Origin: Escherichia coli
GTDB taxonomy: Bacteria; Pseudomonadota; Gammaproteobacteria; Enterobacterales; Enterobacteriaceae
Direction: 5' to 3' (one strand)
Assembly (NCBI RefSeq): GCF_013122565.1
Contig: NZ_CP053258.1
DNA length: 64,000 bases
The translations under genes and the position numbers were made by a program. The stretch's first letter is position 1; each line of letters starts with the position of its first letter. Shown here one piece after another: positions 31,987-36,132 of this stretch. The notes under the pieces were generated by a model. The model had not been told where the DNA came from and made no database searches. It worked only from the letters and a program-made list of their open reading frames with translations.

Positions 31987-34900
31987 TTAGTCAAACGGCG
32001 GTGGGGCCAGCACTTCACGATTACCGTTGTGCCCCTGTTCGCTGACAATCCCCTGCGCTTCCATCTGTTCGATAATACGCGCTGCACGGTTATAACCAAT
32101 GCGGAACTGACGCTGTACGCCTGAAATTGACGCTTTGCGTTTTTCAGTGACAAACTGCACCGCCTGATCGAACAACGGATCCAGTTCTTCAGCGCCATCG
32201 AAACCGCCCGCGCCACCTTCGCTTTCGCTGTCGGAGGTGATGCCATCAACATACTGTGGGCGACCACGCGCTTTCCAGTCCTGCACCACGGCATGAACTT
32301 CCTGATCGCGAACAAAAGCACCATGGACACGTACCGGTAACGTGGAGTTCGGCCCAGAGTAGAGCATATCCCCCATACCCAGCAGTGATTCCGCACCAGC
32401 CTGATCAAGAATGGTACGTGAGTCAATCTTACTGGATACGGTAAAGGCGATACGGGTCGGAATATTCGCTTTAATCAGACCAGTAATAACATCAACCGAT
32501 GGACGCTGAGTTGCCAGTACGAGGTGGATACCCGCGGCACGGGCTTTTTGCGCCAGACGTGCTATCAGCTCTTCCACTTTTTTACCTACCGTCATCATCA
32601 GGTCGGCAAATTCGTCCACCAACACCACAATGTATGGTTCTTTTTTCAGCACCGGATGCTGGGCGTCCATACTGTCACCCGGCTTCCAGTACGGGTCTGG
32701 AATCGGACGCATCATGCGATCGGCTTCAGCAATTTTTTCGTTATAACCCGCCAGATTACGCACACCCAGCGCAGACATCAGTTTATAACGACGCTCCATC
32801 TCGTTAACACACCAGCGCAGCGCGTTGGCGGCATCTTTCATATCAGTAACGACTTCCGTTAACAGGTGCGGAATGCCTTCATAAACCGAAAGCTCCAGCA
32901 TTTTCGGGTCGATCATGATGAAACGCACATCTTCTGGCTGCGCTTTATAAAGCATGCTCAGGATCATCGCGTTCACACCGACAGACTTACCGGAACCGGT
33001 AGTCCCCGCAACCAACAAGTGCGGCATTTTCGCCAGATCGGCAACCACCGGCTCACCGGCGATATCTTTACCCAGCACCACGGTTAATGGCGACGGATTA
33101 TCGCGGAATTTGGCGTTATCCAAAACTTCGCGCAGATATACGGTTTGTCGTTTTTTATTCGGTAACTCCAGACCTACATAGGGTTTGCCAGGAATAACTT
33201 CAACGACACGCACCGCCACCGTCGAAAGTGAACGGGCAAGGTCCCGTGACAAGTTAGAAATGCGCGCCGCTTTTACGCCAGGAGCCAAGTTAAGTTCAAA
33301 GCGAGTGATAACTGGCCCCGGAGAGTAATTGACGACATCGGCTTTAATACGGAAATCAGCCAGACGCGCTTCCACCAGGCGCGCCATTTGTTCAAGCGCA
33401 AAGGCATCTACCGGCTCCACTTCGCTCGGCGGAGGTGTCAGCAAATCCAGAGAAGGCAGCGGCGTCGTCGGTTTATGCAACGGACGGCTGTCGCCATTAC
33501 GCATCAACAGCGGATGAAGCAGGGTATCCTGCGGCTGTGGCGCAACTGGCTGTTGTGGCTGCTGATACTGCGGCTGCGGTGCAACCGGTTGTTGCGGCTG
33601 CTGATACTGCGGCTGCGGTGCAACCGGTTGTTGCGGCTGTTGATACTGCGGCTGCGGCGCAACTGGTTGTTGCGGCTGCTGATATTGCTGCTGTGGCGCA
33701 ACCGGTTGTTGCGGCTGCTGATATTGTGGCTGCGGCGCAACCTGCTGTTGTGGCTGCTGATACTGCGGCTGCGGCGCAACCGGCTGTTGCGGCTGCTGAT
33801 ATTGCTGCTGTGGCGCAACCGGTTGTTGCGGCTGCTGTACAGGTTCAACAATTGGCGTAAACAGCGGTTCGTGTGGACCATCATCCAGCAACGCTTTCAT
33901 TGGCGAAAATTCAAAATCATCCAGCGAGAACGGATTCGCCCCAGCCGGTTGTTCGCCGGAATAACGTTGTTGTTGAGTTTGCGCAAACTGACGAGCCAGT
34001 TCAGCCTCTGCCGCAGCATCTGCATCTTCTGCGTTTACGGGCACATCATGTTGATACTGTTCGCCATAGCGTTGCTGCTGTGTCTGGGCGAACTGACGTG
34101 CCAGTTCATCCTGCTGCATCGCATCGATTTCATCATCGTTGTACTGATCGCCAGAATCGTACTGATTGCGCTGGGCTTCACGGGCTTTTTCTTCCGCCGC
34201 ACGCTGTGAGGGCAGCTTAATACCGTAAGACGCCAATTCACGACGAGTTGGCACGCGGATACGTTTCGGTCGTGGCAACTGCGGGCCAATCCCCTCTTTG
34301 ACCTGCGGACGCGGTCCACCGCTATTTGCCAGACTGAAGACTGGCGCGGCAACGGTTGCGGCAGCCCCCGTCGCCAGTGTCGCTTTTTTCACGCCAGATG
34401 CCAGCGGAGAAACAGCGGCAGCGGCTTCTACTGGAGGTACTGCTGCAACAGAAGGTGCTTTCAGCGAAGATTTGATCGGTTCTGGTTCTTTAACCGGTTC
34501 TGGAATCGGTTGATACCAGGCCGCAAGTTGTTCACGTTCACGGGCTCGCTTCTCTTCCACTTCTTCAAAGTAGTAAAGCGGCGGACGCGCGGGTTTTGTC
34601 TCTTCTACAACGGGTTCAGGCTCCACAACAGGCTGCTGTTCAACAGGTTGCGGCTGTTGGTACAACGGCTCCTGAGCGGCTGGCTGCTGATAAGTTTGCT
34701 CAGTCTGGTATGTAGACTGTGGAGCAAAAGTGGATTGCTGCTCTTCGGCTTGCCAGGCGTTACCTGCCACCGGTTGTTCTGGCGCAGGGGCATAATACGG
34801 CTGTTGCGCAGGCTGTTCCGGCGCAGTTGCGTAATACGGTTGCTGAACAGGTTGTTCCGCCGCAGGAGCGTAGTAAGGTTGTTGCGCAGGTTGTTCAGCT

Positions 34901-36132
34901 GCAGGTGCATAATACGGCTGATGCGGCTGTACTGGTTGTTGCAGCGGCTCATTATATTGCACTGCAGGCTGCGCATATTGTGACTGCTGTGGGTAACCTT
35001 CCGGTGCAGGAGCAATAACCGGCTCTCCCGTTTGTGGACCCGGTACAGGCTGCCAGGCTACTGTAGGTTGCGAAGGTGGAACATCAACAGAGGCAACAGG
35101 CGGCGTCTGAGTCACAGGTTCAACCGACGCAGCCCAGCTTTGTGTCGCCGTGGTAGCAGCAGCTGCTACAGCGACAGGTTCGGTAATTGGCGCACCGTTT
35201 AATAATGGATCGTATTCGTCATATTCTGGCTGCGTTGCACGATTGCCCGAAAATAGGACGTCGTCAGGGTCGGCAACCACACCGCGTGCAGTGTAGGTAA
35301 TCTCTTCTTCATCATCCATCCGCTTACCGGAGAACAGCGCAGCATCTGTTTGCCGCCCCATCGGATTAATGAATTTTTCCGCCAACCGTTTACGACGCGC
35401 TAGCGCGCCGCGAAGAATACGGGCACGGCGTGATTCATGCTGTTTGCCGTGATTTTCATCTTCATACTCTTCGTCGTCTTCATACTCATCTTCATCGACC
35501 CAGGTATCATCGCGACGGGTACGATTACTGGCGAAGGTGAGAATGTTTAAAATCCAGCCGCCGAGTTTTTCAGCAATGGTCACCCATGACCAACCGGTGA
35601 ACAACGTCAGGCCCGCTGCCCAAACGCAGAGCAGCGCAATAGTTCCCCCGCTACTGTGTAGCAGTGGTTGTAGCGTAGTGCTTAGTAAGCTGCCAATGAC
35701 GCCACCGGAGGCAAAATACCAGATATCGTCAGCGTTGATTGCCGCCAGACCACAGGAGGTAAGGATGAGCGCCAAAACGCCAATGATGCGTAGCGAAACG
35801 GCAAAATAATCAATGTATTCGTCGCTGGACTGATGACGCCAGGCAAACCAACAACCGCCGACAATAATGACGGGAATGGTGTAAGCCATCACGCCAAAAA
35901 TAAAGAACAGCGTATCTGCCAGCCATGCACCGGGCATTCCACCTAAATTATGGATAGGTTCATGCCAGGCCGTTTGCGACCAGCTGGGGTCCGAAGGGTT
36001 AAAGCTTAGTAAGGCAGCCATCAACCAGACGGCAAACAGGACAATAAGGATCAGCAACGCCTCCAGAAGGCGGCGGCCGCTACTTAACTTTGTCAATGTG
36101 ACTTCTTTGTCTTCAGTGTATTCCTGGCTCAA
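31987..36132 (-). CDS. ftsK: DNA translocase FtsK (divisome / chromosome dimer resolution)
   Basis: 1381 aa, TTG start; N-terminal TM domain, Pro/Gln-rich linker with tandem 13-aa repeats, C-terminal motor with Walker A GTTGSGKS and gamma domain. Confidence 0.95.
33525..33845 (-). repeat. About 8 tandem copies of a 39-bp repeat inside ftsK (encodes [10 protein letters not shown](P/Q)QY units)
   Basis: Plus strand shows ctgcggctgcggYgcaaccggttgttgcggctgctgata repeated head-to-tail with minor variants. Confidence 0.9.
34770..34925 (-). repeat. About 4 tandem copies of a second 39-bp repeat inside ftsK (encodes PYYAPA(A/P)EQP(A/V)QQ units)
   Basis: Plus strand shows ggttgttcYgg/cgcaggRgcataatacggctgttgcgca-like units repeated four times. 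Confidence 0.85.

Follow-up and report, generated by a model that had tools for sequence, protein, structure and literature searches.

The 39-bp tandem repeat in the ftsK gene analysed here is a coding minisatellite of four in-frame units in the linker of the DNA translocase FtsK, and it is the published Escherichia coli/Shigella typing marker ms06, so that the locus as such was already known. The variation of its copy number among natural strains is most likely a nearly neutral, slippage-prone variation of a spacer. Below we report the evidence for this reading in the window, i.e. the whole stretch of 64,000 nucleotides analysed here from the E. coli contig NZ_CP053258.1, together with comparisons among E. 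coli genomes and other genera.

A four-unit array in the FtsK linker

The array lies within a coding sequence on the minus strand (31987-36132, TTG start, 1381 aa), for which the ORF, Pfam, NCBIfam and RefSeq orthologue annotation of E. coli all indicate the DNA translocase FtsK. The original prediction had named the gene ftsK, and four Pfam domains, an equivalog match and the synteny agree with that name. At the N-terminus, FtsK_4TM (aa 20-191, E 5e-42) gives the four-helix membrane domain, while FtsK_alpha (892-992), FtsK_SpoIIIE (1000-1213) and FtsK_gamma (1316-1376) give the alpha, beta and gamma domains at the C-terminus, and the NCBIfam equivalog PRK10263 is matched with 3109 bits against a cutoff of 1566. 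The gene neighbourhood has the E. coli order serS-rarA-lolA-ftsK-lrp-trxB, in which lrp and trxB are annotated at the orthologous RefSeq loci, and the window neighbours which we take to be lolA, rarA and serS are named by recognition of their translations. Judged by its sequence, the gene encodes an FtsK DNA translocase of the gamma-proteobacterial long-linker type.

The array occupies 34762-34917 on the minus strand (aa 406-457), with four units of 39 bp arranged head-to-tail: unit 1 at 34879-34917, unit 2 at 34840-34878, unit 3 at 34801-34839 and unit 4 at 34762-34800. Each unit encodes 13 residues with the consensus P-Y-Y-A-P-A/V-P/A-E-Q-P-V-Q-Q, referred to below as the PYY unit. Unit 3 is absent, alone or together with unit 2, from the shorter E. 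coli alleles, and unit 4 is a boundary unit, whose orthologue is the last unit of the array in every Escherichia species examined. The unit peptide given in the original prediction is exactly that of unit 1, and its interval of 34770-34925 does hold the array, though it departs from the in-frame unit boundaries by 8-10 bp, which reflects only the arbitrary phase of a repeat; TRF likewise reports a phase of 34772-34925, with a period of 39 bp, 3.9 copies, 77% matches and 0 indels. The four-copy periodicity claimed for the linker is real also by self-comparison, the self-identity of 34770-34925 reaching 0.77 at lags of 39 and 78 and 0.85 at a lag of 117, whereas neighbouring lags give 0.19-0.42, and none of 5000 codon shuffles reaches the observed value (shuffle maximum 0.59). 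No degenerate PYY-like unit flanking the array scores above the shuffled null (the best score, 35, equals the 95th percentile), and the array consists of exactly four units. In the 64-kb window, the only tandem arrays with a TRF score of at least 60 are the two in ftsK, in keeping with the original suggestion that ftsK would vary more in length than any other gene there. No Rfam family overlaps the array region on either strand. Long ORFs also cover the arrays on the plus strand (34510-34983 and 33388-34209); we regard them as a mere consequence of the Pro/Gln codons, which give no stops when read in antisense.

As had been predicted, the array lies in the linker, with the 4TM domain (aa 20-191) on its N-terminal side and the alpha domain (aa 892-992) on its C-terminal side. 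The linker (aa 192-891) has no Pfam family, and a PDB sequence search with aa 371-546 gives no match up to E = 1. The linker context, with P 20, Q 19, A 14, E 10 and Y 8%, plots with disordered sequences in the charge-hydropathy test. FtsKL has been called unstructured, PQ-rich and variable in length (PMC5357621; PMC5391129), and the PYY segment would probably be disordered, as part of a flexible tether. At the linker start there is also a weak acidic micro-repeat (35455-35496, minus strand, period 6, TRF score 35), and a similar acidic repeat of 15-21 bp recurs at aa 212-228 in many genera.

Identity with the VNTR ms06

The ms06 forward primer (AAACGGGAGAGCCGGTTATT) matches the minus strand at 35014-35033 and the reverse primer (TGTTGGTACAACGGCTCCTG) matches the plus strand at 34655-34674, each with 0 mismatches and at a single site in the window (primers from PMC8215070, PMC4553163). 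The resulting amplicon is 379 bp, and (379-223)/39 = 4 gives allele 4. The published marker has a 39-bp unit, an offset of 223 bp and alleles 2, 3 and 4 in the range of 301-379 bp, and it has been scored by PCR in published MLVA work (PMC8215070, PMC4553163). As the later papers cite it, ms06 belongs to the Shigella/E. coli MLVA panel of Gorgé et al. 2008 (J Clin Microbiol 46:1026), re-used in PMC8215070, PMC4553163 and PMC4644529; our identification is made with the primers and offsets reprinted in these three papers. Because the primer matches are perfect and the amplicon arithmetic is exact, a location of ms06 elsewhere is very unlikely, and the array and the marker are one and the same locus, with no difference at the locus level. 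While the ms06 papers give sizes and diversity indices only, the present analysis adds the unit-by-unit structure of the alleles, the size homoplasy, the restriction to Escherichia and an analysis of selection.

Copy-number variation within E. coli

On the whole, the array region is carried by 5425 of 5426 complete E. coli genomes. Copy number was called in 60 complete genomes taken at even steps down the match ranking, a sample which could miss rare alleles of one unit or of at least five units, and 4 units are found in 20 genomes, 3 units in 21 and 2 units in 19. These calls correspond to match spans of 701, 662 and 623 bp (699 and 660 bp in three matches ending 2 bases short of the query), except that H60 was called from its fetched sequence. 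The Simpson index of the 60 genomes is about 0.67, versus the published 0.63, and the copy number of natural E. coli and Shigella strains is 2, 3 or 4. At the level of the whole gene, the annotated ftsK lengths of 3990, 4029, 4068 and 4146 bp and the BLAST match spans of 3990-4146 bp follow 39-bp steps; since the whole-gene BLAST sample is broken up by both arrays, rows of full coverage alone were used for gene length. The expectation that the linker arrays vary among E. coli thus holds, with 2-4 PYY units and, in the four alleles compared, 5-7 QYQQ units.

The array sequences were verified in ten alleles, and the shorter ones are built in different ways. In K-12 and O157:H7 the two units are unit 1, its last codon being that of unit 3, and then unit 4; in 2014C-4135 the first unit combines unit 1 with a 3' end like that of unit 2, and in CB8671 the first unit is a hybrid of units 1 and 2. 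From these structures it follows that at least two routes led to the 2-unit state and likewise to the 3-unit state, and the hybrid units, as read from the alleles, indicate in-register loss of units. A plasmid copy of the ftsK region was also considered and rejected, the matched "plasmids" being Mb-scale or non-mobilizable records which carry the chromosomal ftsK and not a mobile copy.

We consider that misalignment of units in register, by replication slippage or unequal recombination, would change the copy number, slippage being the probable mechanism, and that the reading frame would stay intact as whole units are gained or lost. Each unit adds 13 residues to a Pro/Gln/Ala-rich linker of about 700 residues without recognisable fold, which tethers the hexameric DNA pump of FtsK to the anchor of four helices in the septal membrane. 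The copy number appears nearly neutral, because two extra units change the linker length by less than 4% and because K-12 and O157:H7, with two units, are fully functional.

Distribution, age and constraint of the units

PYY units are present only in Escherichia species, with 2-5 units. About 70 species representatives from Citrobacter, Klebsiella, Enterobacter, Kosakonia and other genera lack them, and none was seen in the Salmonella fragments. The representatives were taken from genome contigs instead of the protein database, as a linker-fragment search of 5.8 billion proteins returned almost only short or frameshifted fragments, serving to list allele types and not taxonomic breadth. Every named Escherichia genome examined has at least two units, and single-unit forms are seen only in two divergent sequences. 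Across E. coli, E. albertii, E. whittamii and the cryptic clades, first units group with first units and last units with last units, showing that the array is old; the pS between units is about 0.7.

In a rival reading, PYYAPxxEQPVQQ would be a functional short linear motif, which binds a divisome partner or drives Tyr-mediated self-association of the linker at the septum, with the copy number tuning avidity. We regard this reading as unlikely, though several results speak for it. When paralogous units are compared without the boundary unit, pN/pS is about 0.09 with synonymous sites near saturation, and Tyr2, Tyr3, Glu8 and Gln9 are kept unchanged in all 19 units. As the unit peptide is kept despite such synonymous divergence, some purifying selection must act on the sequence and not on length alone. 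The retention of at least two units in all named Escherichia genomes examined also favours a motif, as does a review (PMC5357621) according to which FtsQ, L, I and Z each contact parts of the linker, and the unrelated Tyr-spaced repeats found in the same linker zone of other genera hint at a shared requirement.

However, the special constraint on the units which the paralogue comparison suggested does not hold between species, where pN/pS is 0.10-0.23 for the array and 0.06-0.17 for the rest of the linker, against 0.01-0.03 for the membrane and motor domains. As the array is no more constrained than the non-repeat linker, the argument for a special motif has to be downgraded. Furthermore, alleles of 2, 3 and 4 units are about equally common, the PYY unit is missing outside Escherichia among the representatives and fragments above, many of these FtsKs having no tandem repeat in this zone, and according to the same review the linker is not commonly conserved among FtsK homologs (PMC5357621).

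Comparison with other linker repeats

The other ftsK array (33529-33837, minus strand) is a PQ repeat with 7.9 copies of a 39-bp unit by TRF, and is the VNTR ms07 or CVN001, allele 8. The ms07 primers match 34078-34097 and 33433-33452, giving an amplicon of 665 bp with an offset of 353, and CVN001 is labelled ftsK in the literature (PMC11773471). The PYY array lies 925 bp upstream of it in gene orientation, close to the 1 kb originally estimated. The two arrays, together with STTR7 (SENTR2) of Salmonella, are alike in gene, linker, 39-bp (13-aa) period, frame, polymorphism and use in typing. However, the PQ unit is not significantly similar to the PYY unit, the best BLOSUM62 cross-score of 29 matching the average of the shuffled null (whose 95th percentile is 35), as against 71-74 for true units; the view that one linker holds two separate repeat families is thereby upheld, and we reject the possibility that the PYY array is a form of the PQ repeat (ms07/CVN001/STTR7). 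Unlike the PYY array, the ms07 array adjoins the motor domain. It also has more copies (about 8 here, with published alleles 1-12) and units more alike (90% vs 77%), for which reasons ms07 is the more variable marker. In distribution, the PQ repeat is widespread in Escherichia, Citrobacter and Salmonella, whereas the PYY array is restricted to Escherichia.

Other genera have arrays of their own in the position of the PYY array. The 72-bp (24-aa) YQPEPAPYQQP array of Klebsiella/Raoultella and the 42-bp array of Shimwellia are located like it between conserved landmarks, the first of which is APEGY, and share with it the reading frame, the richness in Pro, Gln and Glu and the regularly spaced Tyr, but differ in period and unit sequence, which points to apparently independent origins. 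Regularly spaced Tyr repeats are further found in this zone in Leclercia (24, 45 and 60 bp) and Pseudenterobacter (66 bp), while many FtsKs of other genera without PYY units have no tandem repeat at all here. One may speculate, with a low expectation of being right, that the linker zone between these landmarks needs regularly spaced tyrosines in a disordered context rich in Pro, Gln and Glu, a need met independently in each lineage (13 aa in Escherichia, 24 aa in Klebsiella/Raoultella, 14 aa in Shimwellia, and others), such that the Escherichia units would be multivalent stickers for self-association of the linker or for a divisome partner, with the copy number setting the valency. By analogy, the tolA VNTR (CVN004 in E. 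coli, SENTR1 in Salmonella) may be compared with ms06, as a coding minisatellite in the non-globular spacer of a compartment-bridging protein that serves as a typing marker, although the protein, the unit and the cell compartment are different and the likeness is an analogy only.

Improbable readings: adaptive tuning and phase variation

It might be supposed that the copy number is adaptively tuned, the length of the linker being selected by lineage or niche, for example through septum geometry or growth rate. FtsK does range from 1181 to 1393 aa among complete Enterobacteriaceae genes, the difference being mostly due to linker repeats, and in Salmonella an in-frame linker-repeat deletion is found in one of two strains differing in egg-white survival, with causality not tested in that work (PMC6137255). 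We find this reading very improbable for the PYY array, which accounts for a difference of no more than 26 residues in a linker of about 700; its three alleles are similarly frequent and the same copy number has been reached via different events, which looks like mutation and drift, and in the sampled rows we see no link between allele and host or source.

We give practically no credence to a phase-variable contingency locus, an assembly artefact or a chance periodicity. It is true that intragenic tandem repeats can switch a gene on and off, and that many database fragments end or shift frame at the array. However, with a unit of 39 bp, or 13 codons, no gain or loss of copies can disturb the frame, and each array sequence that we examined reads through as whole PYY units. 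The fetched coding sequences with 2, 3 and 4 units are intact in RefSeq (except A20, with a flagged frameshift whose site was not located), and these readings are refuted by the frame, the presence of the array throughout the complete genomes, the PCR scoring in MLVA and the shuffles.

Implications

The array has little biological import as it stands. It is a typing marker already on record, and the repetitive nature and variable length of the linker are likewise known. The practical use of ms06 is that of a slow typing marker, by which the strain of the window types as ms06 = 4 and ms07 = 8. For this use, equal ms06 sizes mask differing unit structures, and amplicon size alone therefore overstates relatedness. 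The two arrays also explain the frequently fragmented or frameshifted ftsK in draft assemblies, being a nuisance for assembly from short reads. If the Tyr-periodic units should after all be contact sites, the natural alleles of 2, 3 and 4 units would provide a ready-made series for relating linker valency to the coupling of division and segregation.

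The repeat array and its gene

The original prediction placed a four-copy 39-bp repeat at 34770-34925 as the second repeat family of the ftsK linker, and observation and interpretation are both borne out, in the periodicity as in the placement of the two blocks. The self-identity of this stretch is 0.77 at lag 39 versus 0.19-0.42 at adjacent lags, a level that none of 5000 codon shuffles attained (shuffle maximum 0.59 over all in-frame lags), which excludes chance periodicity. Tandem Repeats Finder reports this PYY array at 34772-34925 on the minus strand, with a period of 39 bp, 3.9 copies, 77% matches and no indels, and the only other repeat scoring at least 60 in the 64-kb window is the PQ array (33529-33837, minus strand; period 39 bp, 7.9 copies, 90% matches). 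The PYY array is genuine, well beyond chance. Both arrays lie in one ORF of 1381 aa (31987-36132, minus strand), which scores 3109 bits against the NCBIfam FtsK equivalog (cutoff 1566) and carries the Pfam domains FtsK_4TM (aa 20-191), FtsK_alpha (aa 892-992), FtsK_SpoIIIE (aa 1000-1213) and FtsK_gamma (aa 1316-1376), with no family in aa 192-891. Translated in this frame, the PYY array covers aa 406-457 ([52 protein letters not shown]), that is, units u1 to u4 in gene order, u4 being the boundary unit.

The linker zone around the array consists of 20% P, 19% Q, 14% A, 10% E and 8% Y and a charge-hydropathy test places it beyond the boundary, on the disordered side, in agreement with reviews that describe the FtsKL linker as Pro/Gln-rich, unstructured and of species-dependent length (PMC5357621; PMC5391129). 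A PDB sequence search with aa 371-546 returned no chain at E up to 1, and no Rfam family overlaps the array region. Two Leu/Arg-rich plus-strand ORFs lie exactly over the arrays, at 34510-34983 (157 aa) and 33388-34209 (273 aa); they look like by-products of stop-free antisense Pro/Gln/Ala codons, not genes. At the linker start there is an acidic Asp/Glu/Tyr micro-repeat ([14 protein letters not shown]; 35455-35496, minus strand, aa ~212-228), and a comparable 12-24-bp repeat occurs at this site in many genera.

The start codon at 36130-36132 is TTG, as in the RefSeq ftsK CDSs of K-12 and two other fully fetched E. coli genomes (L001-L003). Upstream of ftsK are lrp, trxB and cydD, according to the window ORFs and the RefSeq annotation of orthologous loci, while the downstream neighbours, recognised from window translations, are serS, rarA and lolA. 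In the complete genome of E. coli 2014C-4135 (L003), the annotation treats lrp as a pseudogene with a frameshift.

Identity with the typing marker ms06

The MLVA panel for Shigella and E. coli has two 39-bp loci, ms06 and ms07 (=CVN001) (PMC8215070; PMC4553163), the latter labelled ftsK in PMC11773471. The published ms06 primers match the window without mismatch at 35014-35033 (minus) and 34655-34674 (plus), giving an amplicon of 379 bp; with the published offset of 223 bp this means exactly four units, the upper limit of the published alleles 2, 3 and 4, which span 301-379 bp (PMC8215070; PMC4553163). The PYY array is thus already known, as the VNTR ms06 in the FtsK linker. The ms07 primer sites (34078-34097 and 33433-33452) flank the PQ array, whose 665-bp amplicon with an offset of 353 corresponds to allele 8; its counterpart in Salmonella is STTR7/SENTR2.

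Copy-number variation in E. coli

When the 701 bp around the array were used as query, 5425 of the 5426 complete E. coli genomes gave a match. We took 60 of them at even steps down the match ranking and read the units from the match span, which is 701, 662 or 623 bp, apart from three matches of 699 and 660 bp ending 2 bases before the query end; one allele (H60) was called from fetched sequence. Four units are present in 20 genomes, three in 21 and two in 19, with no 1-unit or 5-unit allele in the sample, and the Simpson index is ~0.67 (published, 0.63; PMC8215070; PMC4553163). Through both arrays, the annotated ftsK differs in 39-bp steps: 3990 (K-12), 4029, 4068 and 4146 bp (window).

Unit structures were compared in ten alleles. 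The 4-unit allele reads u1-u2-u3-u4. Three-unit alleles are either u1-u2-u4 (B strain, SCU-106, A20) or a u1/u2 hybrid followed by u3-u4 (CB8671), and 2-unit alleles are either u1 ending in the last codon of u3, followed by u4 (K-12, O157:H7), or a u1/u2 hybrid followed by u4 (2014C-4135). Such hybrids are the residue that in-register misalignment would be expected to leave, and the different structures behind equal sizes point to size homoplasy, same-size alleles having arisen in separate events. Plasmid-labelled matches (8 places; H121-H131) belong to records of 0.07-4.9 Mb, all non-mobilizable; they are parts of chromosomes deposited under a plasmid label, and a mobile ftsK copy is rejected.

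Distribution, age and constraint

Among 80 species-representative loci recovered via the FtsK N-terminal domain, PYY units are confined to Escherichia: five in E. whittamii, four more diverged ones in E. albertii, four in a record titled E. coli SCPM-O-B-8794 (L011) and two apiece in two further species. None was found in ~70 Citrobacter, Klebsiella, Raoultella, Enterobacter, Kosakonia, Leclercia and other genomes, nor in the Salmonella FtsK fragments among the protein-database matches; two protein-database sequences of ~53% identity carry a single unit. The units group by position and not by genome, first and last units being the closest relatives across species, and recent internal duplications are only two (E. 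whittamii u1~u4; L011 u1~u3). Together with a pS of ~0.7 between units, this positional clustering implies an array that is older than the splits within Escherichia and has not undergone homogenisation. Directly upstream, ~17 residues ([19 protein letters not shown]; window aa ~385-405, ~34918-34980) are absent from the FtsKs of the cryptic clades and E. whittamii (L004, L005, L011); this is one more linker indel, and it involves no tandem repeat. L011 resembles E. whittamii and the cryptic clades in this indel and in its unit types, and its ftsK differs from that of the window by a pS of ~0.42 in conserved domains; this genome probably lies outside E. coli sensu stricto.

Tyr2, Tyr3, Glu8 and Gln9 are invariant in all 19 units, and pN/pS between paralogous units is ~0.09, boundary unit excluded. 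Between species it is 0.10-0.23 for the array and 0.06-0.17 for the remaining linker; at 0.01-0.03, the membrane and motor domains are five- to tenfold tighter than both. As judged from these ratios, the unit peptide is under moderate purifying selection equal to that of its probably disordered surroundings, and nothing marks it out as a special motif.

Interpretation

The evidence best supports a minisatellite that lies in frame within a flexible tether. The chief alternative would make the Tyr-containing unit a multivalent contact site, as might be suggested by the conservation of the peptide across units, by the at least two units kept in the named Escherichia genomes, and by other genera, where the same linker position is taken by in-frame repeats of unrelated sequence whose Tyr residues recur at regular intervals (aa ~360-530; L014, L016, L020, L026, L036, L040, L029, L031, L033, L063, L065, L038). 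These are 72 bp (24 aa, YQPEPAPYQQP...) x3-7 in Klebsiella, Raoultella and some Enterobacter, 60 bp x7.3 in Raoultella sp. BIGb0138, 42 bp x7.5 in Shimwellia, 66 bp in Pseudenterobacter and 24, 45 and 60 bp in Leclercia. However, the array is no more constrained than the remaining linker, the alleles are about equally frequent, and in many related genera surveyed neither the PYY unit nor any tandem repeat occurs in this zone. Complete genes encode FtsK of 1181-1393 aa. In the complete genome of Leclercia adecarboxylata NCTC13032 (L063), the ftsK frame ends at 497 aa, right after the 45-bp repeat, which could be a genuine truncation or a sequencing error.

Phase variation and assembly artefact are excluded by the presence of the array in 5425 of 5426 complete genomes and by the unit structures of the ten alleles. 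Many protein-database matches are contig-end fragments or wrong-frame reads through the array (P0007, P0015, P0020, P0028, P0031), and ftsK of E. coli A20 (L085) is annotated as frameshifted; it would seem that assemblies often break or acquire indel errors at the two arrays.

For the minisatellite, the hybrid units suggest that slippage or unequal recombination would add or remove entire units, each adding 13 residues to a linker of ~700. The effect of copy number is probably near neutral, since alleles of two, three and four units occur side by side in similar proportions and 2-unit laboratory strains are fully functional. The narrower allele range of ms06 (2-4, versus 1-12 for ms07; PMC8215070; PMC4553163) fits its fewer copies and lower unit similarity (77% versus 90%). 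The PYY array is, on the whole, a known marker of low interest.
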